53,064 bases of DNA from an uncultured Planctomycetaceae bacterium (GCA_964505295.1 CAZDHR010000002.1:1-53064); one strand, 5' to 3'; counted from the first letter of the stretch, positions 3,401 through 43,988 are shown. Notes: a model not told the origin generated them from the letters alone. Made by a program: numbers and translations.

Positions 3401-5137
3401 GTACTCGGCGACCACGTGCTGCTCCGCGATCGACCGATCGTGCGTATCGAACGACCCGGACATGCATCCCTGCGAATACATGAAGTAGGGATCCGTATTC
3501 GTCAGGCTGGCGACGGTCGAGTTCACGAGTCGCGCGTTGTACGTTTCGTTGGCGTGGCCCAGGTGGTTCACCAGGTGGGGACTGTCCTGCAAATCGCCGG
3601 CGAATTGCGAGCCGCTCCATCCGCCGTCCGAATCGTACCGCTCGATGACGGTCCAGTCCTCGGGAATGCACTGATCCGCAATGGGGATGCCAGAGTAGCT
3701 GCCCCACGTCGAGTCGTCGAGCTGCTCTCCCAACCAGACGGCCGTGGTGGCGTTGGCGTGGCCCGTGGTCTCGTACTGGATCGTCTTGGAGACGAAGTTG
3801 GCCGCCTCGGTCACGTTGCTTGTCGGGGCCCGACCGACGTAAACCTCCGCCGTCAGATCCACGTCGCCGCCGCCGGTCCCGTCGTTCGACTCGCCCCAGA
3901 GCCCGTCGCCGTCGCCGTTCCAAGTGCCTTCGAGGCAGGCGTAGTACATGTCCGTGGGCAGGCTGTACTCCACGGTGGAGCCGACGCTGGCGTAGACGCC
4001 TCGGTACGGAATCACCTCCGAATCGCCGCCGAGCAACACCCACTGAGTACCCCAGTTGGCGTAGGCGTCGGCGATGAAGTTGCGAATTCTGTCGGCGCCG
4101 TCGCCGGTCTCCGTGCCCGAGTAGTTGGCGTAGATGTACTCCGTCGTGACGATCGTGGCCGAGATTCCGCGACTGATTTTCTGGCTTGCCAGGGGCTGGA
4201 AGCTGTCTTCCAGCGCGCTGCTGGTGACGATCACGTACTCGTACTGGCCGGCCGCGGGGAGCATCGTCGAGGCGTCTTCGGAAGTCGACGCCGCCGTGGT
4301 GTAGAGGCTGATCGCCTCGGGATTGTCGACCAGCTCGATCACGCGCTCCCGGTCCGGCTCGGAGTCGCGGGGCGAAACGGCCTCGTCGGCCTCGACGGCG
4401 GCGGTCACCACCACGGAGACCTCGGAGTGGTAGATCAGAACGTCGGCGGCCGCGTCGTACTCGACGGGAAAGACCGTCAGCGTGGCCAGGTCGTAGCCGC
4501 AGAGGGTGTGGTTCGAGTATTCGACGGCTTCTTGCTGGCCGAATGAGGAAGAGACGAAGGCCACCGACTCGACGGCAAGGTCGCTCGTGCTGCTAAGAGG
4601 CACGGCCACGGGAGTTGCCAGCAACTGCACGCCCTCGGCGATGACGACGCCGGCGTCGAGGTACTGCGCGTCGATCGACGTGACTGCCATGCCTTGGGGC
4701 AGAAGGATCATCGACTCGCGGACCGGCATCAGGGGATCGCCCGTCGAGACCCAAGTCTCCTCGCCTTCCAGACTGACGATCGCGCCGCCGTCGATCTCTT
4801 CCACCGTGGGCACGCCGTCGAAGACGAATTCGAATATCGCGGTCTGGCCGTTGCCGTCTCCGCTGAACACGCCGCAGGCACCGCACGCCAACCAAGCGTC
4901 CTGGCTCGCGTCCACCGGCTGTTCAATCGCCGATGCGACGGACAGCAGGAATCGCTGCTCCAGCGGCTCGAATCGGCAGCGGCGACCGCCGCGCATCGAA
5001 GACCGGGCTCGCCCGGTCGACGGGAGCCCCGATGTTCGTCGGGGTGATTCGTTCGGATTGGCTTTAAGACGACGGGTCGTTGGGGCTACCGTGGTGCGGC
5101 TTCGACGTTGTCGGCGCATGGTAAACCTCGGGTGCAT
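467..5137 (-). CDS. Secreted gingipain-like cysteine peptidase (family C25) with P-domain, PPC-like domain and C-terminal 47-aa repeat module
   Basis: 1,556-codon ORF. Leader RCRFEPLEQRFLLS. C25-type motifs WVLLGGDSEVIPYR and TDMYYACLEG, with His in VNHLGHAN (His528, nt 3554-3556) and Cys in YSQGCMSGSF (Cys558, nt 3464-3466). P-domain-like THTYDGDLKVYLVSPSGTKVELF. Nine 47-aa repeats at the C-terminus. Start uncertain: ATG 5137 has no SD, while in-frame ATG 5119 has GAGG about 7 nt upstream. Confidence 0.85.
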   Translation of the reverse strand: MHPRFTMRRQRRSRTTVAPTTRRLKANPNESPRRTSGLPSTGRARSSMRGGRRCRFEPLEQRFLLSVASAIEQPVDASQDAWLACGACGVFSGDGNGQTAIFEFVFDGVPTVEEIDGGAIVSLEGEETWVSTGDPLMPVRESMILLPQGMAVTSIDAQYLDAGVVIAEGVQLLATPVAVPLSSTSDLAVESVAFVSSSFGQQEAVEYSNHTLCGYDLATLTVFPVEYDAAADVLIYHSEVSVVVTAAVEADEAVSPRDSEPDRERVIELVDNPEAISLYTTAASTSEDASTMLPAAGQYEYVIVTSSALEDSFQPLASQKISRGISATIVTTEYIYANYSGTETGDGADRIRNFIADAYANWGTQWVLLGGDSEVIPYRGVYASVGSTVEYSLPTDMYYACLEGTWNGDGDGLWGESNDGTGGGDVDLTAEVYVGRAPTSNVTEAANFVSKTIQYETTGHANATTAVWLGEQLDDSTWGSYSGIPIADQCIPEDWTVIERYDSDGGWSGSQFAGDLQDSPHLVNHLGHANETYNARLVNSTVASLTNTDPYFMYSQGCMSGSFDTHDRSIAEQHVVAEYGAFGVVMNSRYGWYVPGDTPGASHHYALEFWDAAFNEGLTHLGEANQDSKDDSLFRVGSTGVYRWIHFETNLFGDPETPLQIGEDAVTNGEIEGVLVEDVNGDGQQQPGEAVLVGETVFLDLNDNGVLDVGTITVASNDVPVDVVDNTTVTSSLLIASGARVADVNVTLDITHTYDGDLKVYLVSPSGTKVELFTNVGSWGDNFTDTTLDDEAGTSIADAAAPFSGTFRPEGRLSRFDGELATGTWTLEITDTMTADTGTLNAWSLEIAFDEPYTQTGADGTFVFTDLPEGTYRVRHALSSGWEHTNPVDGVQVVSVQQGETVQGVDFLASEATPATELGEVDFLQIADLNLAGAEHWYSCQTARQGYLTIEALFQEAASLEVRLYDADRNELAASTVSDGGERIDWDVDAGQTFYLSVTGDAADVDLRLANLVHYDGAGVSVYGTDGDDRLEFAAGEWHQVTINGVHYEFQVSAVSSFEFDGGAGDDAAVLLGSAGADTAVLHPSRATLSGPGYEVAVANTADVTVMGQGGDDVGCFYDSAGDDTFVATTTHARLYGDGFDNQLYAFGQVHAFSREGGTDVAELYDSAGNDSFMAAPEYAKLYGDGFFNRVVSFAQVHAYATAGGNDVVALYDSAGDDDFVATPDEAKLYGDGFFNRAVGFRWVHAYATAGGSDVATLSDSTGNDQFRAWPDEAKLYGYAFFNRAVSFDQVHAYATGDGSDLARLYDSAGDDLFTGTPDDAALSGDGFYNRAVAFRYVLAYATAGGNDEARLYDSPGDDRFVATPDYAKIYGSEFYHLAVAFRYVHAYATAGGTDLAKLYDSSGDDVFVGTPDDGKLYGTGFSNRAVGFRYVEAYATAGGNDTVNLYDSAGDDRFVATPDYAKIWGYGFYHRAVSFESVEAYAGAGGYDRAYLYDSAGDDHLEASGSTAALFNADLSVWAYDFARVSATSSQGGTDTKHVASIDFVLQTQGPWTEL
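520..1795 (-). repeat. Nine tandem 141-nt coding repeats (47 aa: LYDSAGDDxFxAxPDxAKLYGDGFFNRAVxFxxVHAYATAGGxDxA)
   Basis: The GAGTCGTACAG-like landmark recurs at ~655, 796, 937, 1078, 1219, 1360, 1501, 1642 and 1783, a period of 141 nt. Protein copies are clearly alignable and the last copy is degenerate. Confidence 0.9.
2105..2390 (-). other. PPC-like (pre-peptidase C-terminal type) beta-sandwich domain
   Basis: GEVDFLQIADL...HWYSCQTARQGYLTIEA...LEVRLYDADRNELAAS...GQTFYLSVTG. This has the PPC pattern (D-x-Y-x-F ... L-x-L-Y-D ... G-x-Y-Y-L-x-V). Assigned from memory of the family, no search run. Confidence 0.5.
2590..2965 (-). other. Proprotein-convertase P-domain-like module
   Basis: VADVNVTLDITHTYDGDLKVYLVSPSGTKVELFTNVG...FSGTFRPEGRLSRFDGELATGTWTLEITDTMTADTGTLNAWSLEI, the classic P-domain signature. 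Confidence 0.7.
3150..4250 (-). other. Peptidase C25 (gingipain-type) catalytic domain
   Basis: Runs from YEYVIVTSSALEDSF to NLFGDPETPLQ. His528/Cys558 dyad is 30 residues apart in the G-H-A-N / Q-G-C-M-S-G contexts expected for clan CD C25 enzymes. Confidence 0.7.
4940..4972 (-). other. N-terminal leader motif FEPLEQRFLLS
   Basis: Follows a ~55-aa Arg-rich N-terminus. Same motif class as VEQFEERMLLS in the giant protein (40261-40293). Confidence 0.7.
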
Positions 5138-5557: not shown

Positions 5558-5868
5558 GGGCACTCGCGACGGCCGGAGAGGATGGGGTCGCGGCAAAGTG
5601 GCGTTGCACCAAGGCAACCAAGTTGCCGAAACACGACGGGAGCCGAATCGGGAGGGTGCTGTCCGGAAGGGGACGGCGACGCCCCGGAAGTTCAATCCGG
5701 GCGCGTTTGGCAAAGACCCGCGCAAGCGCGTATGCACCGCCGGGGACGAAAAGTTGCCGCCTACCGGGAAGGAGAGTCCTTGCGGACGGCCGCTAAGCGA
5801 GGTTCCTCGCCCCGGCGTTCGGCGGCCAAGACGCGGATGTTCGCCGCGGCAGGGCGAGTCGCAACCTA

Positions 5869-7290
5869 TCAGTAGTCCCGGTTCATGTTCAGGATGAAAT
5901 CGACGGCGTCCGGATCCGGGTCGACGTCCTCGGTGTCGCCCAGATTGCTCCGGTCGGCGTCCACCTCCTCGAAGTCCGACACGGCGAAGTAACAGCCGAG
6001 CACCTCGTTGGACAGGCGGGCCCAGTTGTCCGCGGCCTCGAAGTGGTCGGGAGAGGTCTCGATGATCGAGTCGTGCAGGTAAGCGTGGTCATACCCGCCG
6101 GGCGTGGGCTCGGCGTCGGCGTGGCCGATCACTCGGTCGAAGTACCTTGCCCGGTTGAAGAACCCGTCGCCATAGAGCCTCGCCTGGTGGGAGTCGGCCA
6201 AAGCCTCGAACACGTCGTCGCCCGGCGAGTCGTAGAGGTGGGCCAGGTCGCCATTGCCCTGCGTGGCGTAGGCGTACACGGCATCGAACGACTTCACCCG
6301 GTTGAAGAACCCGTCGCCATAGAGCTTGGCTTCGTCGGGCCAGGCCTTGAAGGTGTCCGGCGAGGTCGGGTCATCGTAGAGCACGGCCGAGTCGCCGCTA
6401 CCCGCGGTCGAGAAGGCGTGCACTTCGTCGAACGACTTCGCTCGGTTGAAGAATCCCTTGCCGTAGAGCTTGGCTTCGTCAGGCCAGGCCTTGAGCGTGT
6501 CCGCTTCGGTCGGGTCGTCGTAGAGCACGGCCATGTCGCCGCTGCCGGGGGTCGAGAAGGCGTACACGGCGTCGAACGACTTCGCCCGATTGAAGTACCC
6601 GTCGCCGTACATCTTGGCCTGCTCGGGCCAAGCCTTGAACGTATCCGCTCCGTCCGGGTCGTCGTAGAGCCTGGCGATGTCGCCATCACCCGGCGTGGCA
6701 TAGGCATGCACCTCGTCGAACGACTTGGCCTGGTTGAAGAAGCCATCGCTGAACAGTTTGCCGAGGGTGGGCGTCGCCCAGAAGGTATCCTTGCTGCCGG
6801 CACGGTCGCGCAACACGCCCACGTCGCCGTTGCCCTGGGTGCCGTAAGCGAGCACCTGCCCGAAGGAGTAAACGCGGTTGGTGAATCCCTCGCCGCTGAG
6901 CTTGGCAAACTCGGGCGTGGCCAGGAAGGTATCGCGTCCCAGGGGATCGTCCCGGAGAATCGCGATGTCCTTTCCGCCACCGCCATCCGCCGTGACGAAC
7001 TCCGCTCCGGCGATTGCTACCACGAAGCCGGGGCCGAAGAACGCACCGTAGTCGGACCTCAGGTTGGCCGTCTCGTCGGCACTGGTGCCTTGGAAGACGA
7101 CTGCGTCGATGCCCTCCCCGGCGTTGAAGCTCACGTAGTCTACGTCCGCTGCGGCGAAGCTGTAGGTCTCGCCGTTGATGAAGGCGGTATAGGCTTCGCC
7201 CTCAAGGCCGCCGGTGAAACGGAACACGTCGGTCCCCTCGGTGCCCACGATGATCACCCTCCGGCCGTCCTGCGTGACGCTACCCGGTTC
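5869..7290 (-). other. C-terminal module homologous to the C-terminus of the 467-5137 protein
   Basis: VGTEGTDVFRF...INGETYSF...FNAGEGIDAVVFQGTSADETANL...GGGGKD, then 48-aa repeats, ending DAVDFILNMNRDY. It parallels YGTDGDDRLEF...INGVHYEF...FDGGAGDDAAVLLGSAGADTAVL...GQGGDD, then 47-aa repeats, ending ASIDFVLQTQGPWTEL. Confidence 0.85.
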
Positions 7291-10200
7291 CCAATTGACG
7301 GTCGGGACCTCGATTCGATAGTCTTCCACCTCGCCGTCCGGGGCGGTGCCGGTGTACGGCACGTCTTGCCATGTGTTCTCGTCGTACAGCCGCACGACGC
7401 TGTCATCCTCCCAGGTCCACTGCCACGTGCTGAAGCGGAATCGGGCGTAGGTGTCTCCGGGCATTGCATCGGCCGGGACATCGAAGGTGACGTAGTTTGT
7501 GACGCTGGGGCCCGGGGCGAGCTGCACGGCGTAGCCCGTGCCGTTCGGCCCCTGCATATCCAAGTGTTCCCCGGGATCGTCCCAGTCTCCGTCCCGGTTA
7601 AAATCGATCCAGGCACTGAGCCATGCCCCCTCGGTGGTGACGTTGTCGGTAGTGACAACCTGCAACGTGAGGGGCATGCCGGGCGTGATGCCCTCCAGCC
7701 CGAACACGCCGTTCTCGTCGTCGTGGTCAGGGTCCGGGTCGGCGTCGTCCCCGGTCGCGGCTTCGCTGGGAATCCCGTCGTCCTCGACGTCCAGGCTCGA
7801 GCCGTCCGGAGCTTCCGCACCCAGGTACAGCTCCTTGTTTTGCAGATGACGGGCGCCGTTGTCGGCCAGCAAGGTCGGATAAGGCGCCGGCGCGTCGCCG
7901 AAGTCCATGTCGCCGTCGTCGTTGAGGATTGCGATCACCGCCTCGGTCTCGTCGACGGCCACGCTCTGCGTGCCGGGAGTCACCACGACAACCTGCGCCT
8001 CGGCACTGAGAACCTCCAAGAGGAAGGTCTCATCCAGTTCGACGTCCGTATCGCCGTTGATCTCCAAAGTGACCGTGAAGGTCAGCGCGGGCTCGGCCTT
8101 GGTGGCGACGAGGATCTCGAAGTCCTCGCCGTCGTGGTACCTCCAAGCCATCATTTCTTCGGAGATCTGCGGATACCAGTCGAACGCGTCGTTGTCCGAC
8201 AGGTTGATCGGGATCCGGTCGGCGCCGAACTCGTAGTAGTAGACCTCCCAATCCGTGCCGTCCCAGGTGTGCCAGACCGCGTAGTTGCCGGCCACCCGAG
8301 GATGCTCGTCGCTCAACGAGCTGTTGGAGATGTTCACGGCCGCGGCGCCCGAGGCGGCGTTGGCGACGTTGCTGTAGAAGATTTCCCAGTTCGTGCCGAC
8401 TAGGCCCTGCCAGACCACGTTGTTACCGGAGATGTGCGGATCGATGTCATCCGCGGCGTCGTCGGTGAGCTGGAACGTGGCGCCGAAACCCGTGTTGGGA
8501 TCGAACGAATGGAGGAAGACCTCGTCGTCCACCCCGTCGTCGGCGACCCAGAGGATGTTGTTGCCGTCGATCGATACGGAGTGTTCCGAGAGCGTGTTGT
8601 TGGTCACCTGGGTCTTCACTCCGGAGGCGCCGGCTTCCGCCCGGAACAGATACACCTCCAGGTCGGTGCCGTCGCTGCCGTACCAGGCGACGTTCGAGCC
8701 GGAGATTCGAGGATCGTAGTCATCGAAGTTGTTGTTGGAGATGTCCTGCGGCGCGCCGGCGGCGGCGATGTCGTAGAGGAAGATGTCCTGGTCGGTGGGC
8801 GTGTGGCCCGTCCAGGCCACATGCGAATCAGATACCTGCGGCATCTTGTCGTCGTAGTCGTTGTCCGTCAGTCGGACGGTCGTCGACGTCGTCGTTTGAG
8901 TCGTCAGGTCCGTCACTCGGGTGCACAGATAAATCTCATAGTCCCCGGCGTTCGGGTCTACGGGGTCTTCGCCCTCTGGGATACCCGCCCAGACGACGTG
9001 GATGGTCTGCGTCGTGCCCTCGGTGAACTTGTACACGCTGGCAAGTTTGTCGTCCGTGCTGTTATTGGTGAGCCGTTCAGGCGACTCCATCGTCGTGGCG
9101 TCGTACAGGAAGATCTCCCAGGTCTCCCCGACGCCGACCGGGGACTCGTAGACGAGGCTATCGCCGGAGATCTGGTAATCGTAGTCGTTGGATCGGTCAC
9201 TCGTGATCGTCTCGGTGGTCCACTCTTCCAGAGGTTGACCGTGTGGGTCAATCGTGATCGACGAGTCGACGACAGTGTGGTAATCTGCATCGCTGGGATC
9301 GGGCGCCGTCGGCCCGACGAGATCGCCGCCTCGGGCCGCGGTGGGGTCGGTATCCGGGTTGCCGGTCTGCTGGGTTTGGTACTCGATCGTGATGGGAGCA
9401 CCGAAGGACTCCGTCACCTGGAACGTGACTTCAACCGTCGTGGTCGGATCAATGCCCGAATTCCCTTCCACCACGGTCGCGTCGGCGACCGTGACGTGCG
9501 GGACCTTGTAGTTGCCGAAGTTGACGCCCGCCAGCGCCTCGCCCGAGCTTAGCTCCACGGTGTAGTAGCCGGCCTCCCGGCTATGGGAGCCGGCGTTGGA
9601 CGTCAGCCGCGTGGTTCCGGCGTCGAACGTCACGAGGTCCCCGGTCAGCGTGACGGTTCCGCCGATCGAGCTGGCAGTGATCAGGAAGGACGCGCTCGAC
9701 ACCGAATTCACGGCCGTCCGAATCGCCCTGGCCACCGTCGTTCTCGAATCGCCGGGCGTGAACGGCACCCGCACCGCCGAGGCGTTGCTTACCACGTTGT
9801 CACTATCCAACTCGAACACGACCATGGCATCGCCGTCGCCGATGGAGAAGGTTTGCCGGTCGGTGACGTTGGCCACCTGAGAAGTGCCGACGCCCGGGAC
9901 GGCGACGTCCATGCTGCCGCCGGCCAGATAGAGGTCGTCGCTGTTGGGGGCCGTCTGGAGCCAACCCGACGGAACGACTTCGTTAACCGTGTAGGACCCG
10001 TCGAACAGTCCTGGGAATTCGTAGAACCCCGTCTCGTCGACGCCCGTCGTCAACGGGTCGTCCGCCATGGTGACCGTCGACTTGCCGTCCAATTCGATGG
10101 TCACGCCGGCCAAGCCGGGCTCGATTCCCAGCGGGAGGCCGGTGCTCGGATCGAATCGGAACGCGTACTGGACGTTCATGGCGTCCAGGTCCGCCTGGCT

Positions 10201-13200
10201 CGACGGACGAGCCAGGCTGTAGTAATCGGTGAAGTTGCCGCTGTCGAAGCCGATTTCGGCCCCGCCCCCGCCGAATCCCCCCGCGCCGCCGTCACTGTCA
10301 CCCGTCGTCCACGACAGATCGACCACGTTGTCGCCGTTGGCGTCGTAGTAGTGGAACGCGACGATGTCGCCGCCGAGATCGTCCTCGATATGGAGCGCGA
10401 AGCTGTTGCGTGCGTCGGTATTGCTTCCACTCGTGCGATCGTTGTAGCCGACGTTGACCCAGTCCACCTGGACGAACGGGTTACCGCGCTCGGTGGTTCC
10501 GGTGGCCAGGTGGACGCTGCCGCCGTTGTCGCGCGTGTCCACGTCGGCCCAGAACGGGGCGATCATGGGCATGTACTGCGCGAACCCGGCGACTCCGGGA
10601 GTCCTCTGGTAAGGCCCGAGGAACGTGATGTTCCCGTTGTTGTTGATGTAGAACCGGTCGTACGTCTGCCCGTAGAACTCGAAGTCGAACCCGAACGAAA
10701 TCGCGCTGGAGTAAAGGTTGTCGTTGGCCGACACGTTGTTATACGGCACGCCGTCGCTGTCGTAGCCCGACATCAGGACGCCGACGCCCGGGGAGACCGG
10801 CTCGATCACGGGAGCAACCCCGCTGGAGGCCGGCTCTTGATCCCAAACGCCGTCGCCGTCCAGGTCGTTGAACACGTAACCGCCGATCGACGCGTCGCCG
10901 ACCTCGATGTGGACTCGATAGTCCTCGACCTCGCCGGGGGCGTCGGACCCACCCGTCGGAGACTCGACTTCGGTGTCAACCGAACTGAACCGGAACCGAG
11001 CGAAGGTCGTCAAGGCGTTCAGGCTCGACGGCACGACCAGCCTTTGCGCGTCCACTTCCGGCATCGCGAGCAAGTCGGCCAGATCGTAAGTCGTCGTGAC
11101 TCCCGTCGTCCCCAAGGGCACCGCGGAGAGAATCTCTTCCCAGATCTCGTTGCCTTGGGCGTCGGTGTAGGCACTCTCGGCCCAAACGTTGTCTTGGTTG
11201 TAATCAACCCAAGCGCTTAGGTAGCCCTCGCCGGTGACCGTTACCTGCAAGCCCTCGATATGGTTGCCCACAGCGAACCGGGTCCAGGTAACGCCGTCTT
11301 CGTCGTCGCCGTACGCTGGGTCCGCGGCGAACTCATCGTTGTCGTCGCCCTCGGCGATCGCGTCCGGCTGGCCGTCGGCCTCGGGGTCGACCAAGTAACC
11401 GAGGTATATCTCTTCCGAAACCGCATGGCTGGCACCGTCGTCGGCAGCCAGCGTCACATAGGGCAGGGGCGCGTCGCCGAAATCGAGCCCACTATCATCG
11501 TTGAGGATCACGATCTCGGCTTCGTCTTGCTCGATTACGACTTCCTCGACGGCGACCGTGTTCAGGTCCACCACGTCGGCGCCGTCGATGATCAGGCTGA
11601 ACGGCTCATCGTACTCGACGTCCGTGTCGCCGAATACGACCAGCGGAATCGTGACCGTCACTTCCGGCTTGGCCCGCGTGGCCACGATCAGCCGGTACAC
11701 TTCGCCGTCCAAGGCCCGCCAAACCACCAAATCCTCACTGACGACAGGATATCGGTCTTCCAGGTCGAAATCGGCGGAAACGTTCTGTGAAGCCATCGCC
11801 GTATCCAACCCGCGGTACATGACTTCCCAGTTGCCCCCGAGTTGCTCCGACTCCCACACGACCTGATCGCCTTTGATCTGGGGATTCCCGTCGTCGAAGT
11901 AGGCATTGGCGGAGACGTTGACCTTCGCCCCGGAAGACACTTGGTAGCGGAAGATGTCCCAGTCTCCGCGGCCGCTCGGATCGGAGTCGTAGCCCTGCCA
12001 CACCACGTTGTCCCCAGACACCTCGGGCGTGTTGTCGTTGTACGCGTTATCCGTGATCCGGGTGAACGTCTCCGATTCGATCTGGTAAAGGAAGATCTCG
12101 TAGTCGCCGCCGTCGTGGCCTCTCCAAACCACGTTGGAGCCGTCGATCCGAGGCGAGCGATCCGTCAAGGTGTTGGTGGTGATCGCAGTAACGGCGGGCG
12201 TGCTGGAATCGCCGTCGGTATCGTTGTGCAGATTGTAGAGGTAGATCTCGAAGTCCTTGCCGTCGTCCCCGTACCACACGACGACGGTATTGGTGACCGC
12301 CGCGCCGCCGGAGCCTATCTGGTAGCTGGAAATCTGCGGCTCGAAGTCGTCCAGACCGGCATGGTCGTAGATCCGGTCGGAGAGGTTGGCTATCCCACGC
12401 GTGCCGACGTCGTAGAGGTAGACTTCACGGTCGGTAGCGGTCTCGCCCCACCACGTCACGTAGGAGCCCGACACCTGGGGGTCGCCCACCTCAAAGAGAG
12501 TGTGGGTCACTTGGGTCGTGGCCCCGGTGTTGATGTCGTAAAGGAAGATCTGCGAATCGTCGCCCGTACCGCCGGTACCGAACACGCCGTCGTGGCCGAC
12601 CCAGGTCACGTAGCCAGTCGCCCCGTCCTCCGACACGTACATGTTCACGGCGTAATCGTCCGTGTCATTACGGGTGATCTGGATGACGGCGTCGGTCTTG
12701 GCGTCATAGAGGAAGATTTCCGTATCCTCGGTGCCGGTGCCACTGCTCCAAACGACGTAGTCCTCTGAGACGGCGTACGACGACACTCCTCCCGGAAGCT
12801 GGATGGAGCCGTCCCGCGTCGCCGGGGATGTCGTGTCTTCCTTGGTACGAAAATAGCGCGGCGCGTCCTTCTCCTCGACCGGGCCCGACGTGCCTCCCGC
12901 GGAATGGGAAACGACCATTTGCTGAAGGAAGTCGTCCCACTGCGTGTCGGCGACGAACTCCAGGGTCGAGTTGTATGCGGAGTGGACCGTGTCGCCCTCA
13001 GCGGGCAGGTAAATCGACAAACCGGTCGCGGTGTAGTACGCGCCGGAGTACACCTCCACCACGGCGGCGTCCACCGCCGCCTTCACCTGGCCCGCGGCCG
13101 TGACGATCGCCGGAGCCACCGACGCGGCCTCCACCAGGCTCATGAAATGGCCCAGATCGCGGAACTCGGGATCGCCGAACCCCTGGGCCGCGTCGCGCGC

Positions 13201-16200
13201 GGCTTGCACGGCATTCCAGTCCGCCGTGGTGGCCGACGTAATCATCAATTCGGCGAACCCCTCCAACTCGCCGACCAAACCCGTGGTTGCGCTGCCGAGT
13301 TGGCTGAGGTCCGTCGCCGTGAACGTATCCGTCGGATATCGCAACGCGTAGGCGTCGACGATCACGCTTCCCAGCGCGGCGGCGTCCATTCCGGGGTCGC
13401 TCACCAGCGGCCCGAGGATGTTCTGATACTCCCATCCGTCCCAGGGCTCCGTCTCCTCGCAGGCCGCCATGACGTCCGCCTCGTTGCCAAGCTGATAGGC
13501 GATTTCGGTCATGCTCATCAAGCAGGCGTCGAAACCAACGACCTGCAAGTGGGGAAGTGCGTCCATCGCCACGGCCAACTCGTCCATTTCGAGATTGTCG
13601 AAACTCGTGTCGTCGTAGCAGAAGCCGTAATACCCGCTCCCATGGTCCCAGAACACCAGAGCGTAATTCGACGACGGGTACTCGGTCATCGCCCAGTCGA
13701 CGAAGTCGACGACCGTGTCCGGGTTGCCCATGTTGACCTCTCCAAGGCCGATGCCCCAGTTGCCGTCGGGGACATCGCCGGCCTCGACCAGGCCTCGCCG
13801 CGCGCCGGTCCAGTTGCCGTATCGGGTGTCATAACCGAAGATGCGGTCGAACTGGACGACGACGTTCACGTCGCCAGTGGAGCCGACGCTGGCCATTTCC
13901 AGGAAGTCGTCGATCGCGGCGTCCTCCAGGTTGCAGTCGCCGTCCAGGTAGACCATGAACGTCCAACCGACCGCCGCCGCCGAGCTTCCCCCGCCGAGCA
14001 CCGCGATCGATTCCGAGGTCCACGCTCCCAGCGGCGGACTCTGCGGGTCGATGGTGACCTGCTCCGCGTACGCCGGATCCGACGGAAGCACCGCCGTATC
14101 GGCGTCCTGGTAGTCGTCGCCGCCCTCGGCGCCATTGGGCGGATCGCCGTCTTCGGTGTGGTAGTCAAGCGTGATCTCGGCCCCGAACGATTCGGTCACG
14201 TGTACCGTGACCTCGACCGGCGTTTCTCCCAAGTCTCCTTCGCCCACCCAAACGTCGGAGACCGCGATCACGGGCTTCCGGAAGTTGCCGAAGTTCGCGA
14301 TGCTGAACAGCTCTCCGTCCTCCAGGTAAACCCCGTAGGACCCTTCTCCCGTCGTCCCGTCCACTTGACTGAACGACGTAATGTCTTCCAGCGGGCTGCT
14401 GGTGTGCTGGGAGAACTCTACGGCGGCGTCGCCGACAGCCCTCAAGATTACGGAATTACCCGTTACCGATGCGGAGACGTCCAGCCTCCCCACACGGTTC
14501 ACCGCGCCTGCGATGGCCGTGGCGACCTGCGCCGCGGTGGTGGCGCCGCTCACGTTGACGAGCACGTTGGTCGAACCCGAGTTCCCGTCGCCGTTCAGGT
14601 CGAACTCGAACCGGACGCGGTCAGTCCCGTCGAACACCTCGAACCACTCGGATTCCTCGAGGTCCTGCTTCTCGACGGTCTGGATTTGCAGGACGCCGGT
14701 AGGCACGTACTCGTCTTGATTCGGATACGTCTGAAGCCAGTCGCTCCAGGCATCCAGACCCGGAATCTCGGCCTGAAGCCGTCCGAGTTCCGTGGGCTCG
14801 ATGTCTACTTCCTCGCGGACCACGAAATAAGGCGTCGCGAGGCCCGGATACTCGCTGCTGGCCAACAGCCTGTCGAACTCATAGTAGCCCGTTTCGTCCA
14901 CGTCGGACGTGGACAGATCGTCCTCCGTGGTGAGCGTCCACGGTTCCGGGACTACACCGTTCGGGAGGTCGTAATCGAAGTCGAGACTTCCGTTGTCGTT
15001 GAGGTCCAGGTAAACGAGCGCGCCGGCCAAGCCGGGCTCGGGGTCAATGGGCACGCCGGCGGTCGGGTCGATCCGGAAGGAGTACTGCTCGATCTGAAGC
15101 AATTCCGACAGGGTCATTGGATCGTCGGGCCGCATCACGCTGAGGTAGTGAGCGCCGTCGCCGGCGTCGAACCCGATCTGAGCGCCCTGCCCTCCGAACC
15201 CGTTGCCGGTCCCCGACCGGTCGCCGGTGGTCCACTCCATCGCCGCGTACTGGAAGATCACAATATCGCCTGCCGCATCGTCCTCGATGTACACCGAGAA
15301 CGTGTTGCGAGCGTCCGTGTTGCCCGAGTCGGTCTGATCGTAGTATCCCACGTCGATCCAGTCGACCTGGACGTACGGCTTGTCGCGCTCGCTGGTCCCC
15401 GTCGACCACCGCACTTCGCCGGCCCCGTTTCGCGTGTCCACGTCGGCCCAGAACGGAGCGATAATCGGGGTGGACTGGGGGAATCCGTCCGGCGAGAAGT
15501 CGCCCAGCGAATCCTCGAACGTGATGTTCCCGTTGTTGTTGATGTAGAACTGGGTGTACGTATTCCCATAGAACTCGAACGAGAAGCCCAGGTCGAGAAG
15601 ATCCGACGACAGGTCGTCGTTCGGGCCGACGTTCGTGTGGATCATACCGTCGCTGTCCCTGCCCGACATGAGCACCTGTTGGCCCGACCCGAGCGTGTTC
15701 AACGTGACCGCCGGCACGGAGATCGGCTTGCCCTCGGTGTTCCAGACGCCGTCGCCATTGACGTCGTCGAACTTGTAGCCGCTAATCTTGCCCTCGCCGA
15801 CCTCGATCGGGACCTGATAGTCCTCCACCTCGCCGAACGCCACCTCAAATCGCTCGGTGTCGGAATTCCAGAACCAGTATGCTGCGGTCGGAGATGCAAC
15901 GGCTTCCTCGATCGAACTGAGCCGGAACCGGGCATACGTGGTCATGTCGCCCAACTCGGCCGGGATGTAGACGTAGAACGTGCGAGTTGGCTGGCTGCCG
16001 TCGAAGTACCGTTGGTCTTCAGGGATAATCTCTTCGGAGATCGGGTTGCCGTCGGGGTCGAGATAGCCCGTGTCACCGTCCCAGACGCCGTCCCCGTTGA
16101 AGTCGATCCACGCATTCACGTAGCCGACGCCCGTCACGGTCACCTCGAACGTGGCGATCTGGCCCGGTGCCAGCCGGTCCCAGGTGACTCCGTCCTCGTC

Positions 16201-19200
16201 GTTTTCGCCGAGCTGCTGCCAGTAGACGTCCCGGTCGTCGCCCAGCGCGTTGCCGGCGGATAGCTGGCCGTCGGACTCGGGGTCGAGCAACGTGCCCAGG
16301 CACAACTCGACGTTTTCGTAGTTGCTGTCCCATTTGATTTGATGGTAGGCGCCGCCGTCGGCCAACAAGGTGGCATAGGGCGCCGGCGCGTCCCCGAAGT
16401 CCAATCCGACGTCGTCGTTGCGAATCTCGATTTCGGCCGTTCCGTCGTCGACCAGCACACTGCCGGTAATCGTGGTGCCGTCCTCAGGATCGACGACTTC
16501 CGCTCCCGTAACGTGCAGCAAGAACCATTCGTCCGGCTCCGGCGTGTAGTCGCCGATGACGTTCAACTGGATGGTCGCGGTCACAACCGGCTCAGCCTGC
16601 CTGGCCACCATCAGCCGATAGTCCGCGCCGTCGTAGGCTCGCCACACGACGAGGCTGTCGCTGAGGAGCGGATAGCGGTCCTCGCCGGCCGAATCCTGCG
16701 ATACGTTCTGCGGGATCGCTTCGGATCCCAGCCTGGTGTGCATGATCTCCCAGTTGTCGCCCAGGTGGTTCGACTCCCAAACTACCTGGTCGCCGATGAT
16801 TTGGGGATTGGCGTCCTCCAGCGAGGCGTTCGACGAGACGTTCGTCCTTGCCCGAGTGGGAATGTGATAACGGAAGATGTCCCAGTCACCGCGGTCGCCG
16901 GGCAGCACGCCGTCGTAGCCCTGCCAGACGACGTTGGAGCCGGAAATCTGTGGCGTATTGTCGTCGTTGTCGTTGGGGAGGTTGACCTGGGTGGTCGTGC
17001 CGGTGCCCGTGGCCGGGTCGTACTCGAACAGGAAGATCTCGTAGTCGTTGCCGTCGTAACCTCTCCAGACCACGTTGTTTCCGTCGATTTGCGCCCAGCC
17101 GTCCGTCACCGTATTGCGGGTCACCTCGACCACGCGATCGGCACCGGCGTCGTACAGGTAGATCTCGTAGTCCTTTCCATCGTATCCCTGCCAGACGACG
17201 TTGGAACCGGAAATCTGCGGGTCGTAATCGTCCAGCCCGGCGTGATCGTAGACCTCTGCTGAGATGTTCAGGGTGGTGTCTGCGGCAATGTCGTACAGAT
17301 AGATTTCCCGGTCGAGCGCCGTATCGCCCCACCAGACCACGTGCGTACCCGACACTTGCGGATCGCCGACGGCATAGGGGGTGTCGGTAAGCTGGGTACT
17401 CAGCCCCGTGTTGACGTCGTATAGGTAGATCTGGGAATCGTCGCGGGTCCCGCCGGCGCCGAGGTCGCCGTCGTGGCCGACCCAAACCACGTACGAGCCG
17501 GAGATTCGCGGCGACTCGTCGTCCGTTTCGTTGGCGGTAAGCTGGCGCATCGTCTCGGTGGCGGCGTCGTAAAGGAAGATGTCCAGGTCGTCTCCGTCCG
17601 TGGCCTCCCAGACGACGCGATCGCCGGATACGTCGTAGTAATACTCCGCCTCCGCCTCCTCCTCCATGATCAGCCCGGTGGTCGGATCGATCCGGACGAC
17701 CCACTGGCCCATCGCGTTGAGCACGTCCAGGTCCGCCCGGCTGTTGGGCCGCGGCAGGCCCTGGTAGTTGAGCCCGTCGCCGGAATCGAAGCCGATCTGG
17801 GCGCCTTCTCCGCCGAAGCCGCCCATCCCCTCGGCGTCGCCGGTGGTCCACTCCATGTTGTCGTACACGAAGGCGACGATGTCGCCCATCGGGTCATCCT
17901 CGATATAGAGCGTGAACGTGTTCGACCTGTCGGTCGTCGCATAGTAGTAGCCCACGTCGATCCAGTCGACCTGGATGTAGGCGTGGCCGTCGGCCGTCAC
18001 GCCCTGGGCTAACCGGACCTCTCCGCCTAGCTCACCGGTCTGCCAATCGGGGCGGGTGTCGACGTCGGCCCAGAACGGGGCGACGATCGGCGTGCTCTGC
18101 GGGAACCCGGCCGCTACGTAGGTCCCCAACGCCTGCGTGAACGTGATGTTGCCGTTGTTGTTGACGTAGAACTGCGTGAAGTTATTGCCGTAGAACTCGA
18201 ACGTGAAGCCCAGGTCAAGAAGCGCCGACGACAAATCGTCATTGGCGTACACGCCGGTGTACTGGAAGCCGTCACTGTCCCAGCCGGACATAGGAACCTG
18301 ACTACCTGGGGCCACGAGTTCGAAGTCAGGCGCTCCGGCGACCGCCTCCCGGGGATAAAGATTCCCGAGCGCTTCGGAACTCCAGACGCCCAGCGGCTCC
18401 TCCTGCGGTTCGATGATGAACGACTCGTAGTCCGGGTCCGTGGGATCCACCGCTTCGTAGTCGGCATCCGGATCGGGATAGGGGTCCTCCGTTTCGTTGT
18501 CGATCCCGTCGACGGCCGTGTCGTCCTCGGTCTGGTAGTCGATCTGGATCGTCGAGCCGAACGACTTGGTCACGTTGACCGTCACGTCGACCGTGGTCAC
18601 TCCCACGTCGCCTTCGTCCACCGAAACGTCGTCGATGCTCACGTGCGGCTTCCGGAAGTTGCCGAAGTCGGCGCCGTAGCCGGGTCCGTCCGCCCCGAAG
18701 TGCTCGCCCGCACCCAATCGGACCACGTACGCGCCTCCGAGAGTGTACGAGCTGATGAGGGCGATCGGACTGGTCTCTTGCTCGTAGACAAGCGACGCGT
18801 CCTCGTCCGTGGCCGTCAGCCTCAAGGTCACCACGCCGGCCGACGCCACGGCGGAAACCTGGAGATTCGTCGCCGTGCCGACCGCCGTGGCGATCTTCCG
18901 CGCCACGTCGTCCACCATATCGGCATCGGTAACGCTGATTGCAATGCGCCCGCTCAAAACGTCCGCATTCCACGAAGGATCATCGGTCTTCTCGAACTCG
19001 AACTCCTGCGTCACGGTCCCGTCGCTGATCGAGAACCACTGACCGTCTCTCAGAGGCGAATCGGGGTCGTTCGCGGCAACGGCGTTGAGTTCCAGCGTGC
19101 CTTCCGGCACGTAGTCCGGCTCGCTGGAGAGGGGGTCCGGATACGTCTGGAACCACTCACTGAACCACTCACTGAAATTCACGAATTCTTCCGGCACAAA

Positions 19201-22200
19201 CGGGGCCAACTGCGCCAACTCCGCGGGATTCAGCTCCTCGCGGACGGTGTAGTTCCCGGCGAACAGCCCGGCGAACTCGTAGTAGCCCGTCTCGTCGACC
19301 CCCGGCGTGGACGGGTCGTCGTCCAGGGTGATCGTCCAGGGCTCGCTCGGCTCATCCTGGCCGTCTCCGTCGAGGTCTTCGAACGTGAGTTCCCCGTCGT
19401 TGTCGAGATCGAGGTAGACGACCGCTCCGGCGACGCCCGGCTCGGCCTCGACCGGCGTGCCCGTCGAGGGATCGATCCGGTATTCGTACCGCTCCACCTG
19501 CAGTAGCTCGGAGAGGTCCTCCAGGCTGGTGGGCCGCATCTCGCTGATCTCGCGGCCGGATCCATCGCCGGGATCGAAGCCGATCTGGGCGCCCAGCCCG
19601 CCCAAGCCGTCGGTGCCCGTCGTGTCGCCTGTGGTCCACTCCATCGCGTAGTACTGGAAGATGACGACGTCGCCGCGGGGGTCGTCTTCGATGTACAGCG
19701 AGAAGGCGTTGCGGGCGTCGGTGTTGTCGGGGTCGGTTCGATTGTAGTAGCCGACGTCGACCCAATCGACTTGGACAAACGGCCCGCCGCCCGACCTGGT
19801 GCCCTTGACCATCCGCACTTCGCCGCCCGTGTTCCCGGACGCGTCAGGCCGCGTGTCCACATCGGCCCAGAAGGGCGCCACGACCGGCGTCGACTGCGGG
19901 AAGCCCTGCGGGATGAACGTGCTCAACTCGTTTCCGAACGAAACGTTCCCGTTGTTGTTAACGAAGAACTGGGTGTAGGTGTTTCCGTAGAACTCGAACG
20001 AGAAGTCCAGGTCGAGCGGTAGCGACGACAGATCGTCGTTGGCGTACACGTCCGTGTACTCAACCCCATCGCTGTCCCACCCGGACATCGGCACGAGTGT
20101 ACCCGACCCGAAAGGCTCCAGGTTGATCACGGGAACCGTGCTGCCTTGGATCTTCCACTCGCCGTCGGCGTTTTCGTCGTCGAACTTCCACCCGCTGATC
20201 TTGCCGTAGCCCAGGCTAATCGTAACCTGGTAGTCCTCGACCTCGCCATCGGGCAAGTCTTCCTCCGCGGTGTCGGCCGGCGTGGTGGGTTCGAGCCCGG
20301 GCACGCTCGAGAAGCGGACCCGCATGAAGGTATCGATTGGGGTCAGGTCATCAGGCAACGGAAGAAGATCGATCTGTTGATTCGGGTCTTCGCTAGTGAG
20401 TTCGTAGTCCGGCGCGATTACCTGCTCGGAAACGAAGTTGCCGGTTTCTACGTCGTCGTATCCCGCCCAACTGCCGTCGCCGTTCAAATCGACCCAAACG
20501 TTGAGATAGCCGGGATGGTCGGCGTCCACCCCCACCGGGGTCACGAAGATTGAATTCGTCTCGGTGCTTCCCGCCCTGAGCAAATTGGCCAACAAGGGCT
20601 CCTTGGCCGGGTCGTCCGTCCCGATAAGCACGCCGTCCTCGTCGTCCAGATTGTCGTTGTCGTCCCCGGTGGCCGTGTCGTCCCACACGGCGTCGATCTC
20701 GGGGTCCAAACGTTCTCCCAGGTAGACGCTGGACGAGTGCGTGTGCCGCGCGCCGTCTTGCGCCTTGAGGGTCGGATAGCGAGGATCGCCATTCGGCCAG
20801 TAGGCCGGTGCATCGCCGTAGTCCATCACGTCGGAGGGCAGGATGGTGACCTGGTAGTCCTCGACCTCCCCGGTCTCGGCCTCGCCGAACGGCGTCAGCG
20901 TCACGAAGCCGGTGTCGCCGGGTTGGCCGGAGACGACGCGGAATCGGGCGATCGTGTCGCCCGTGCTCAGCCAACCCGTGGGATCAACAGCGTTATCATC
21001 GGTCGGCAGGGAGATCGTCAACGTATCGTACGCGGCGCTGCCGTCGAGAACGAGCCCCCCCGGAGTGATGAACTCGCTGTACCACTGGCCGCCGATCTGG
21101 ACTCGGTCATAGGCGCTCAGGTCGTTCGGATCGTAGTTCGGATCGAAGTCGTCATGGTCCGGGTCGAAGCGGTCCTCCTCCGCCATGAAGTTGCCATCGC
21201 CGTTGAGATCGATCCAGGCGTAGAGCGTGGCGTCCGTGCCCGACGCGATCGTGCTGTAAACCCGAACGTCCACGTCCTCACCGGCAATCAACGGCTCGTA
21301 GGAGAAATCGATGCCGTCCTCGTCGTTGATCGCGGAATCGTCGTCGTCACCGGTTGCGTCCGAGGTCGGGATGCCGTTGGTCTCCGCGTCGATTTGCGAC
21401 CCCAGGTAGACCGTGTCCGCGACGATCTTGTGGCTGGGACCATCCCAACCGGTCTGACCCTCCACGAGCAGTCTGGTCACGTAGCTGTTCGGGGCGTCGC
21501 CGAAGTCGCGCAAGGCCGTGACGATATCGAGCTGGTAGTCTTCCACTTCGCCGTCGGGCAAGTCTTCCACCTCGGCGCCGGCCGGCGTGGTGGGAGCAAG
21601 AGGGCCATGTTCCTGGTAATACTCATCGCTATAGAAGCGGAAGCGGCCGAACGTGGCCATCTCCTCCTGCGTGTCGTTCGCCTCCAAGACGAGGTAGAAG
21701 CGGTTTTTGCCTGCGATGACCTGGATGGAGTCGGCACTGGTGTATTCGGTCTCACCCGTCTGGAAGTCCCCGTCCTGGTTCAAGTCGGTCCAGACGTGGA
21801 TCTTTTCGCTGTCCGTGCCGTCGTTGTCCCAGATGCCGTCGCCGTTGAGGTCGATCCAGGCGTCCAACCACCCGTCGGCCGAGGCGGTCACCGTAAACCC
21901 GACGTAGTTCGTCACGTCGGTGATCAACAGGCCGCTGTCGAACTTGATGCCGTCGTCGTACGAGTCGCCGGAGGCGTCCGCGTTCGGCTGGCCGTCGGCC
22001 TCGAAACTGACCCCACTGCCCAGGTACATGTTGGGAACGACGCGGTGCCGGGCGCCGTCGTTTTCGAGAAGGGTCGGATACTGCCCCGGAGTCACGTCGA
22101 GCGGATCGGGCGCGTCGCCGTAGTCGAAGCCCAAAAGGCTGACGAGGAACTGCGTCGAGCCGGCGGCGAGCGGGTCGCTCGTGCTGTTCGGCCGGGTCGG

Positions 22201-25200
22201 TTGCAGCAGGTTGTTCGCCAAATCCCGAATGGCCGCCGTGTTCGAGAAGGTCGTGTCGGGATTGAGCGGGTCGCTGTTGTCGTTGTTGTCGAGCACGATC
22301 CGGTAGACGTAGCCCGTCAGCCAGACGCCCGGCGCGGGCAGCAGGCGGATCAGGTTGTTGGTCGAGTTGTAGATGTACAGGTAATCCGTGCCCTGGTTCA
22401 ACAGGACGCCGTTGGTGTAGCCGGCGTCGCTCGGATCGTGTCGCCAGACTTGGACCGTCGACCCGTCCGCCAGGACCGAGTCGTCGATGCCGACGCCGCC
22501 CTCGTCCTGGAGTTGAATGGCGAACTCTTGGACCTCTTCTCCGATCAGGGAGACGTCGTGGCGTCTGCGCACCAGGTCCTTGTTATCCGGGTCGTTGTCC
22601 GCCGGCACGACGAGTTCCGCGGTGGGCCCGCTGAAGTCGACGCGGTCGATGGCCCCGCGATCGATGAACACGTCGCTTCCGAGGCCTTCGCCGGGCGTGT
22701 AGCTCGCATCGTCGAGGCGCTCCTGGCCGTACATGTCGAGCCCCGGCGCCACGATCGCCGACCCGGAAATCCCGACCGGGGCGAGCACCTGGTTCAAGTA
22801 CGTGGAACGCTCCTCCTTTTTGTCCTCGGAGCTGTCAATCGCCTGGGAGCCGGACGCCAGGTAGAAGTTGCCGTTGGCCGGATCGACGAACAGCGGATCG
22901 GTGTCGGCGATCACGAGTTCGAAGTCGTCGTATTCGCCGGGGACCGGCTTATCGCCGACGTTCTGATAGAGATTGGAGCCCAAAACCGTGTTGGCACTGG
23001 ACGAGGCGTCGACGCCAATGCCGGTATCGAGATTGGCCAAGATGTTGTTCATAATCGTCGGGCCGGCGTTGTCCGTCACCTCGACCCCCACGCCCGACAG
23101 GCCGTAAATCGTGTTGTTCACGATCCGCCCGAACGGAATCGCCCCCACCGGCTCGCCCGCCGCGTTCGTCTGGCCGCTGAACAGGATCCCCCCGTCGCCG
23201 CTGTAGGCCACCAGGTTGTTCTCGATCTGGATACCCGAGACGAGATCGTTGGGCGAATTGAGCGTTCGCCCCGACCCCGGGTGCGGCGAGTTGGACGTCG
23301 CATCGCGATCACCCGGCGCTATGGAGATCCCGTACTCGTCGGAGTACATGATGCTGTTGGCTTCGATCGTGATCTGCCCCTTCAGACGCTCCGAGTTCTC
23401 GTCGCCGCCGTACCGGGCGTCGAGGAACTCGGCCACGACCGTGCTGGTTCCGGTATCCACGGAGACGGCGTCCCACAGGTCGACCCGCTCGCTCCCCTCG
23501 AACTCGACGTAGTATTCAGCCATCCCCTTATTGGAGGCGTCGCCCTCGGTGATGCTGATCGACGAGGCCGTCACGTTGAGCAGGGTGGAGCTGTGGATGG
23601 CGTCGACCATCTTGTCGGCAACGTCGCTGGCGGTGTCGTCGGCGTCGTAGAAGATGGCGATCGCGTTGCCGCTGTCGCCGTCCAGCTCCGAGTCGAGGAA
23701 CATGAACGACTGGCTGTTCAGGCCGTCGTAGATCGAGAACTCGTCGCGATGGCCGATCTCCGTCGCCGGCGGGGCGAAGAGGGACCAGCCCTCGGTGAGC
23801 CGGTCGTTCGTGTGCATCCGTCCCTCGTTCGTGTACATCCCCGCGGAAACGGAAGCGTCGGCAAGGGACTCGTAGGTATCGATGCTGAGATACGGGCCGT
23901 CCGGCGGCGGAATGTAGTACGCGTAGTCGTCGGCGCGGCGGATCTCCACCTGGTAACTGCCTTCGAGAACGACGGGGGTGTCGTAGGGTCCCGGTGCCGC
24001 CTCGAAGGCAAAGGTCGGATCGTCGTCGGTCGGGGCCGCGGCGACCATCTGTCCGCGCTCGGCGAAGCCGATGATCACGTCGTCAATGTAGAAGCCCTCG
24101 TGGAGATTGTCCTGCCCCCGGTCGAACTGATTGAAACGGTTGGGGTGCGGCCAGCCGTAGTTGACGTTCGGGAAATCCCCGTCCAGGTCGCCGACCCGGT
24201 CGCCGAAATCCGTTCCCTGCATCCACCGCCCCTTCCCAAAATCACCCACCGCGTCCCGCGGCCCGGTCGTCGCGCCCAAGGGCCCTGGGTCCCAGACGTG
24301 GTGGCCGACCAGGTGCATCAGGTATCCGAGCGTGTCGTCGCGCTTGATCGTCGTCTCATCGTAGTTGCGTACGTCGCTGGTGCCGTCCCGATAGGCAGTC
24401 AGCGGCCCGGTCAGTATGACCCACTCGTCGTCCGCGCTGGTGGCGGTCACGTCGAGATCCAGCAACGTCCCGTCCGTGTCGATCGGCGTGTTGATCGCGG
24501 CCGCCATGCTCGCCGCGACCTCTTCCACCGTATCGCCGTAGTCGAACGATACGGCGACGCGGCCTGCCGCGACTTGGGAATTCCTGTCGAACTCGAAAAC
24601 GACCTCCATCGGCGTGCCGCCCGAGTCGACCCCGATAATCGTGAACGTGTCGCCGTCCGAGATATAGTTGTCGTAGTAGTTACTCTCGACGGCCAGAATC
24701 CGGTCGTCGTCGCCGCTGTAGTGGCGGTTGACCACGGCCGTTACGATCTCGGCGACCTCCACGTCGCTCATGTCGGCGCGGACGGGCACGCGCACGTTCC
24801 CCGGCGTGGTTAGCGTGCCCGGCGCATCGCCTTCCAGCTCCAGGGTCCGGACGGCCCCGCGCGGGACGGCCTGGGCGCCGATCAGCCATACCCGGTGGTC
24901 GTCGGGATACTGGTTGGCGGGCGCCCGGTACGCGAGCACGTCGAGCCCCGCCGCCGAGTTGATCCTGGCGGCCACGGCGTCGGCCACCTCCTGCGACGTG
25001 TCGGTGGCCGTGAAGGGGATCAGCACGTCGCTACTCGGCGACCCGCTCGGCGGGAAGTCGCTGTCGAACTCGAAGCGGACGGTGTTCCCGTCCTTGTCGA
25101 CCAGGTCGAAGTATTCCCCATCCTGGACCTTGGCCCCGGCGGCGTTGGGTACCAGGAACGAAAAGCCCATGTCGAACTCGAACGTGTCCGTCGAGCCGTC

Positions 25201-43978: not shown

Positions 43979-43988
43979 GGGGAAAGTA

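Follow-up and report, generated by a model that had tools for sequence, protein, structure and literature searches.

Why should a bacterial protein carry four copies of a domain known from animal extracellular matrices, and what might they do there? The question is raised by a 53,064-nucleotide (nt) stretch of DNA from an uncultured Planctomycetaceae bacterium (GCA_964505295.1 CAZDHR010000002.1:1-53064), which at its full length we call the window. A single uninterrupted frame on its minus strand (5869-40410) encodes a protein of 11,513 amino acids (aa), in which a preliminary description had picked out four segments as NIDO domains, the domain of nidogen, alpha-tectorin, mucin-4 and SNED1. 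Judged from their sequences, these segments are almost certainly genuine members of the NIDO (nidogen-like, PF06119) family. All four lie inside this giant open reading frame (ORF), and when the 7.4-Mb assembly was searched in all six frames, NIDO was found only there.

The identification rests on profile comparisons in both directions. Against the Pfam hidden Markov model (HMM), with its gathering cut-off of 25 bits, the four copies score 80.4, 85.0, 94.2 and 56.1 bits (E-values from 6.5e-15 to 1.3e-26); the E-values are thus significant, well outside what chance would give, and the earlier assignment stands. The Pfam alignment of copies 2-4 spans positions 2 to 157/162 of 186, leaving the last ~25 model positions unaligned. 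For the reverse comparison, a profile, A2, was built from the four window copies and 36 further bacterial NIDO domains (40 sequences, eight bacterial phyla) and searched against 1.84 billion representative proteins. Its best match is an animal protein: Rana temporaria XP_040182910.1, with 4,253 aa and 15 tandem NIDO domains (2609 Pfam bits), closely followed by proteins of Hyperolius and Danionella, the latter named 'NIDO domain-containing protein' in UniRef. Individual frog domains score about 80-96 bits against A2 over profile positions 2-184/200, and the window copies span positions 1-199. Since Pfam NIDO matches the copies and a profile made only of bacterial domains retrieves frog and fish NIDO, homology to the animal domain holds both ways. 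The ordered hallmark blocks (Y[VI]NNNG..SF, FWAD.D, W..V.YY and NTFQ/S) occur in all four copies and align with those of Rana, Hyperolius and Danionella. In a direct alignment, copy 3 is ~26% identical to a frog NIDO domain, with the blocks DD..S, Y[VI]NNNG..[ST]F, FWAD[VI]D, W..V.YY and NTF in common. The animal side of these comparisons, and of the tree discussed below, consists of vertebrate multi-NIDO proteins from the A2 search; the canonical nidogen, TECTA, MUC4 and SNED1 are left out. NCBIfam has no model for the NIDO domain itself, and its only matches were to the PEP-CTERM or type IX secretion system (T9SS) tails of homologues.

The vertebrate proteins retrieved in this way form an observation of their own. 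Called 'uncharacterized', they consist almost wholly of tandem NIDO domains, 6-15 per protein (Rana XP_040182910.1, P0121; Hyperolius, P0123; Danionella, P0138 and P0249). Their architecture is unlike that of nidogen, TECTA, MUC4 and SNED1, and they outscore most bacterial proteins against the bacterial profile.

The four copies, each of ~210 aa, are 54-67% identical to copy 1 and have 81 invariant columns in their alignment. Three short motifs occur exactly four times each in the giant protein: NNNG (aa 6818/7417/8291/9923), PFWADVD (aa 6846/7445/8319/9952) and WTTG (aa 6925/7521/8393/10034). All of them fall within the four nucleotide ranges first proposed; our domain limits (Table 1) lie ~50 nt farther downstream on the coding strand. 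The motif patterns first quoted for the segments fit copies 1-3 throughout, but three of the four blocks of copy 4 deviate from them, each by one to three residues (M-I-APFWADVDTR, N-S-F-A-L-H-IEDD and S-WTTGD), and this copy also has an 8-aa insert ahead of WTTGD. Ahead of its N-D-D start, each copy has a conserved lead-in of ~20 aa, V.MSG.DSDG..Y..V (in copy 2 at ~18247-18310), which extends the NIDO unit ~20 aa past the Pfam N-terminal border.

Table 1. Features of the giant ORF, in coding order, and of its downstream neighbour
Feature	Position	Strand	Evidence	Remark
Giant ORF	5869..40410	-	ORF finding, Pfam	11,513 aa; carries all four NIDO copies
Subtilase (S8)	38986..40008	-	Pfam PF00082, E=3.2e-29	N-terminal
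Metzincin zinc-site motif HEIMHNLGFGH	31819..31851	-	Regular expression	aa 2854-2864; between NHL repeats and first beta-helix
GEVED ahead of copy 1	20221..20508	-	Pfam PF20009, E=8.8e-15	Ends ~60 aa ahead of the copy
NIDO copy 1	19411..20043	-	Pfam PF06119, E=2.2e-22, 80.4 bits	aa 6790-7000
SdrD_B-like start behind copy 1	19222..19395	-	Pfam SdrD_B, E=0.008 (weak)	Start of ~300-aa unit
NIDO copy 2	17611..18246	-	Pfam, E=8.5e-24, 85.0 bits, model 2-162/186	aa 7389-7600; sole copy without GEVED ahead
GEVED ahead of copy 3	15811..16122	-	Pfam PF20009, E=2e-10	
NIDO copy 3	15001..15624	-	Pfam, E=1.3e-26, 94.2 bits	aa 8263-8470; the modelled copy
SdrD_B-like start behind copy 3	14860..15024	-	Pfam SdrD_B, E=3.5e-4 (below cut-off)	
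C11 peptidase (clostripain type)	12922..13953	-	Pfam PF03415, E=3.5e-44	Between copy 3 and copy 4 modules
GEVED ahead of copy 4	10912..11223	-	Pfam PF20009, E=1.4e-9	
NIDO copy 4	10081..10728	-	Pfam, E=6.5e-15, 56.1 bits	aa 9895-10110; most divergent
SdrD_B-like domain behind copy 4	9940..10122	-	Pfam SdrD_B, E=1.9e-11, 44.6 bits	
Downstream neighbour, C25 (gingipain-type) peptidase + proprotein-convertase P-domain	467..5137	-	Pfam PF01364, E=1.5e-53	1,556 aa; without NIDO

The surroundings of the copies follow a partly regular plan. According to the preliminary description, every copy follows a GEVED or Calx-like unit; this is borne out for copies 1, 3 and 4, where a Pfam GEVED domain ends ~60 aa upstream, but not for copy 2, which is preceded by the ~300-aa SdrD_B-like unit trailing copy 1. 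The ~60-aa linkers between GEVED and NIDO (20044-20220 for copy 1, 15625-15810 for copy 3 and 10729-10911 for copy 4) contain an orphan SdrD_B-like first-strand motif, GKISG[WY]KFDD.N.DG.W, found in these three linkers only. The fragment suggested the idea that NIDO is an insertion in an SdrD_B-like domain. We rejected this idea on two grounds: the SdrD_B-like domain farther downstream already has a first strand of its own, and the fragment is missing from copy 2.

How did the copies come to be in a planctomycete? The NIDO family was first described in animals, and recent acquisition from an animal, or eukaryotic contamination of the contig, would be one account of the domain at this place. 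Several observations make this account vanishingly improbable. In a maximum-likelihood tree of bacterial and vertebrate domains, the comparison that the preliminary description had proposed, the four copies nest in an 18-sequence clade (support 100/99) with 13 planctomycete sequences and 1 from a metagenome-assembled genome (MAG) labelled Gammaproteobacteria; the nine vertebrate NIDO domains stand apart as a separate clade on a long branch. GC content is even along the giant ORF, at about 0.62-0.67, identity to frog NIDO is only ~26%, and orthologous copies are present in related MAGs. On the tree, the GC content and the orthologues, recent transfer or contamination was rejected.

The orthologues also provide a relative age. 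The sister of copy 1 is L001 (87% identity), and that of copy 3 is L003 (76%); both of these relatives lie within a single open frame on a contig of a Thermoguttaceae MAG, where an equivalent of copy 2 is found at equal spacing. Because orthologues of copies 1-3 occur there at the same spacing, the copy duplications are older than the split from the Thermoguttaceae MAG. The ratio of nonsynonymous to synonymous substitution rates (dN/dS) of orthologous copies is 0.30-0.42. The four copies are old duplicates under purifying selection on a planctomycete-specific branch.

Two sequences sit oddly with their labels. The MAG labelled Gammaproteobacteria (L011) has a planctomycete-type NIDO in an open frame of >2,200 aa, and a MAG labelled Henriciella pelagia (L052) has a NIDO + CHU_C T9SS protein whose close sister, on short branches with 100/99 support, comes from Crocinitomicaceae. 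In both cases the contig looks mis-binned or the gene recently transferred.

The preliminary description presented NIDO as a metazoan domain in an unusual bacterial setting. The implied rarity does not survive a wider search. The A2 profile matches 20,896 clusters at 50% identity with E <= 1e-3, and 2,822 with E <= 1e-30; bacteria dominate the hit lists, and the bacterial family spans many phyla. Two short peptide patterns, applied to bacterial contigs from one genome per species, yielded 329 or more confirmed relatives, spread over Planctomycetota, Alpha-, Beta- and Gammaproteobacteria, Cloacimonadota, Bacteroidota, Cyanobacteria, Acidobacteriota, Myxococcota and Clostridia. Of 301 species genomes of Planctomycetota, 28 (roughly 10%) have a PF06119 match above cut-off; in samples of other phyla, the domain occurs in 13 of 250 further Bacteroidota genomes (~5%; 14 of 251 with the sample-centre genome) and in 6 of 300 Pseudomonadota genomes (~2%; 7 of 301 with the sample-centre genome). 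None of 14 classic control genomes has it. The NCBI name 'nidogen-like domain-containing protein' is already attached to relatives in Phycisphaerae, Thermoguttaceae, Bacteroidota, Crocinitomicaceae, Flavobacteriales and the cultured planctomycete Polystyrenella longa. Searches of a literature library for work on bacterial NIDO returned no paper. Bacterial NIDO is known at database level only, and the case is an ordinary one; with a family this large and already annotated, surprise is unwarranted. The number of copies is not exceptional either, given the 15 in the frog protein.

The simplest members of the family show how bacteria usually deploy the domain. Carriers in Proteobacteria, Cyanobacteria and Acidobacteriota usually have ~400 aa (~300 aa in the acidobacterial example) and the following layout: a Sec signal peptide, ~20 aa, NIDO, ~170 aa, and PEP-CTERM with an Arg-rich tail. 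These small carriers match Pfam NIDO even better than the window copies do, with E-values of 1e-37 to 1e-44 and essentially along the whole model (positions 2-185/186). In Bacteroidota and Cloacimonadota, NIDO lies near the N-terminus of T9SS cargo proteins of 750-1,850 aa that also have PKD and CHU_C or Por_Secre_tail domains. Planctomycete relatives contain a recurring mix of a secreted protease (matrixin, M36 or S8), PPC or Calx, NIDO and SdrD_B. Most bacterial carriers have one NIDO.

The genes next to some carriers are worth recording. In Plectonema, the NIDO-PEP-CTERM gene is followed after 200 nt by an exosortase (EpsH) gene (L048:4316-5203); in Agarivorans (L043:4143-4625) and Vibrio (L035:4154-4699), an IalB-family gene follows on the same strand after ~30 nt; and in Methylophilus, a GGDEF/EAL gene is upstream of the NIDO gene.

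A more distant relative is found among gliding adhesins. The N-terminus of a RemA-family adhesin of Flavobacterium johnsoniae (PDB 8gl6 chain D, residues 52-183) matches A2 with E=8.7e-9. Pfam NIDO does not match this N-terminus, which on the A2 match is a distant NIDO relative. Chain D was named RemA by its depositors; in the accompanying paper, the trapped substrate is RemZ, Fjoh_0803. A reference cited in PMC10994853 describes RemA as a mobile surface lectin.

What does the domain look like? In the literature, NIDO is without a solved structure and without an assigned function, in agreement with what the preliminary description said of its function. Sequence searches of the PDB, whether started from one copy or from the 40-sequence profile, returned no animal NIDO structure; they returned only the RemA-family chain with its unresolved N-terminus, the cryo-electron microscopy map of 8gl6 resolving only the C-terminal domain of that chain. 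An AlphaFold2 model of copy 3, computed from the 40-sequence alignment, is confident (predicted local distance difference test, 88.7; predicted template-modelling score, 0.88) and comprises twelve strands plus a single helix (residues 169-178). Each copy is predicted to fold as a compact beta-sandwich of ~200 residues with one helix. The all-beta-plus-helix model is consistent with published work on two animal domains: the circular dichroism of a SNED1 NIDO fragment, and a beta-sheet-plus-helix model of the mosquito MESH NIDO that has been used in chitin docking.

Among solved structures, the fold has no relative that Foldseek could find: the best PDB match of the copy 3 model has E=0.22 with template-modelling (TM) scores <= 0.22, and most matches are coronavirus spike noise. 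Among predicted viral structures, a few uncharacterised tailed-phage proteins do match (best E=3.3e-6, TM 0.58; a Synechococcus phage, E=2e-4). Three BFVD entries, A0A6J5P7T5, A0A879R3E6 (Synechococcus phage S-SRM01) and A0A6J5KVM1, are of 286-507 aa and have a predicted NIDO fold (E 3e-6 to 2e-3; TM score normalised to the query, 0.41-0.58).

We turn to what the copies may do. In copy 3 numbering, residues D3/D4, N29-N31, D61, D63 and T64 are invariant or nearly so across the 40 sequences of eight bacterial phyla, and frog NIDO domains keep them all except T64, which is replaced by Asn. We give about an even chance to each NIDO copy being a non-catalytic binding module. Its binding site would be made by the Asp/Asn-rich loops N-D-D, NNNG and FWADVDT and may be stabilised by Ca2+. 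The modules would attach the giant protein to a polymeric extracellular target, for example, a polysaccharide or glycoprotein matrix, and the four of them could tether several peptidase domains to a substrate surface. A binding module is favoured because conserved polar loops are unneeded in a spacer and because NIDO is the membrane-distal head in simple bacterial proteins.

The same loops bear on the other functions that such a domain could have. Inert structural spacers that push the giant protein away from the cell are one candidate: the copies sit in repeated super-modules (a block labelled a propeller, GEVED, NIDO and an SdrD_B-like unit), and beta-sandwich spacers are frequent in giant surface proteins. 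We judge this role improbable, since the NDD, NNNG and WADVDT loops are near-invariant over 40 sequences and eight phyla, and, in all but the final Thr, in frog domains, and since NIDO is the main folded, distal domain of small bacterial proteins. The conserved Asp/Asn cluster could instead belong to an unrecognised enzyme or self-processing domain. D61, D63, N29-N31 and D3/D4 form an invariant acidic and amide set, and a fold without known match makes a new activity conceivable; yet Pfam, NCBIfam and the PDB reveal no similarity to catalytic families, and the invariant columns include no conserved His, Ser or Cys nucleophile. This is a highly improbable reading.

The main rival to a binding module is self-association, in which the copies would bind each other, rather than a foreign ligand, to produce a protein meshwork or cell aggregation. 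Three observations point this way. An N-terminal NIDO fragment of SNED1 had about twice its theoretical mass in published size-exclusion chromatography with multi-angle laser light scattering, an apparent dimer. NIDO forms long tandem arrays in vertebrates, with 15 domains in the Rana protein and 6-12 in those of Hyperolius and Danionella. The PEP-CTERM proteins, which are the commonest bacterial NIDO carriers, include the flocculation-associated PepA of NCBIfam, with weak C-terminal matches only. However, most bacterial carriers have a single NIDO, and glycosylation may account for part of the SNED1 mass excess. Overall, we regard self-association as unlikely.

Several points weigh against a matrix-binding role itself. 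The copies are internal in the giant protein (aa 6,800-10,100), whereas in small bacterial proteins NIDO is the distal tip. The WTTGD block is confined to bacterial sequences, which means that a binding site may in part be unlike that of animals. The chitin or glycan idea in the literature, put forward for the mosquito MESH NIDO, comes from docking only, and the Foldseek search of the PDB produced no solved lectin or carbohydrate-binding module with the NIDO fold. Taking all of this together, true NIDO domains in a multidomain exoprotein, with a putative role in matrix binding or tethering, form the best explanation, to which we give slightly better than even chances.

A broader proposal can be built on the same residues. 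Animal NIDO would be a small offshoot of a larger and older family of bacterial and phage surface heads, and the conserved loops would come together as a single ligand site common to all of them, which might depend on Ca2+ and bind glycans. We consider this proposal doubtful. If it were true, a small bacterial NIDO would reveal the function of the domain in nidogen, alpha-tectorin, MUC4 and SNED1.

The domain company that the copies keep is of extracellular type throughout. The giant protein contains S8, metzincin-motif and C11 peptidase regions, FG-GAP, LamG_3 and NHL domains, beta-helices and six GEVED domains (Pfam and regular-expression searches). Behind an Arg-rich, non-classical leader, the N-terminal order is S8 subtilase, LamG_3, FG-GAP repeats, NHL repeats and a beta-helix (aa ~3670-3810); then come a weak PPC match that stays below threshold (aa ~4000-4050) and another beta-helix (aa ~5680-5820). 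No M10 match was reported by Pfam for the metzincin-motif region at E<=0.01. The middle part continues with three tandem GEVED domains, NIDO-1, a ~300-aa SdrD_B-like unit and NIDO-2. After NIDO-2 come a repeat block that was first labelled a propeller, GEVED, NIDO-3, a ~300-aa SdrD_B-like unit and the C11 clostripain; then a propeller-labelled block, GEVED, NIDO-4, a ~300-aa unit, a further propeller-labelled block, GEVED and, towards the C-terminus, an acidic repeat module, the chain ending in ...FILNMNRDY. The ~300-aa units behind copies 1, 3 and 4 are homologous, with self-similarity among aa 7026-7348, 8501-8802 and 10112-10402.

All co-resident domains are of extracellular types, with three or four peptidases among them. 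From this domain company and from the sorting signals of homologues, export is predicted, and the giant protein is probably a surface or secreted planctomycete protein. Pfam found in it neither PEP-CTERM (PF07589) nor the T9SS sorting domains Por_Secre_tail and CHU_C (PF18962, PF13585), and the genes adjoining the giant ORF include no secretion or sorting genes.

The neighbouring genes deserve a brief description. With the C25 peptidase downstream and the S8, metzincin-motif and C11 regions of the giant protein, two adjacent genes bring together four peptidase clans. The upstream neighbour is the primosomal helicase PriA (frame 41693-45754, minus strand, 1,353 aa). Its Pfam domains start only at about residue 629, behind a long unassigned N-terminal stretch that lies in a region of 69-70% GC; this stretch may be an over-extended ORF call or a genuine extension.

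The window itself carries little weight, because a routine Pfam/InterPro scan gives the same call and NCBI already names the orthologous planctomycete proteins. The wider point is not specific to this locus: the proteins that contain NIDO have links to hearing, basement membranes and cancer invasion, and bacteria supply thousands of simple, cysteine-poor, single-domain versions that are expected to be easy to express. The preliminary description had commended the giant protein as a tractable prokaryotic context for studying NIDO. We disagree: an 11.5k-aa protein of an uncultured MAG is unsuitable, and cultured bacteria offer better models in the ~400-aa NIDO + PEP-CTERM proteins of Agarivorans, Methyloversatilis, Methylophilus and Sphingomonas azotifigens, or in the Polystyrenella longa protein.

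How, then, does the window protein compare with known systems? Metazoan NIDO (PF06119/SM00539), present in nidogen-1/2, alpha-tectorin, mucin-4, SNED1, Drosophila mesh and C. elegans DEX-1, belongs to the same family by HMM and reciprocal profile; it is extracellular and mostly beta, as is predicted for the window copies, and it has its ordered motif blocks in common with them. Relative to the vertebrate domains examined, a WTTGD...GFGG block is bacterial only and a ~20-aa insert is vertebrate only. The partner domains differ as well: GEVED, SdrD_B-like units and peptidases in the window; EGF, AMOP and vWD in animals.

The closest counterparts are the planctomycete nidogen-like exoproteins. 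Polystyrenella longa WP_144996292.1/QDU81071.1 ('Matrixin', 1,988 aa) and Thermoguttaceae MHB8897801.1 fall in the same NIDO subclade as the window copies, and the local order of domains in these exoproteins is that of the window: protease, PPC or Calx/GEVED, NIDO, SdrD_B-like. The window protein is far larger and combines four NIDO domains with several peptidase types in one chain. The NIDO + PEP-CTERM proteins of Agarivorans sp. DSG3-1, Methyloversatilis universalis EHg5 and Plectonema cf. radiosum are 40-47% identical to copy 3; they have a single NIDO behind a signal peptide and are exosortase-sorted, unlike the giant protein with its lack of a PEP-CTERM match. T9SS cargo proteins and RemA/RemZ present a NIDO or NIDO-like head on an adhesin-type surface protein, with sorting domains that are absent from the giant protein. 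The tethering role proposed here would have its parallels in the membrane-distal NIDO heads that other bacteria display on PEP-CTERM and T9SS surface proteins, and in the part that animal NIDO proteins play in the matrix.

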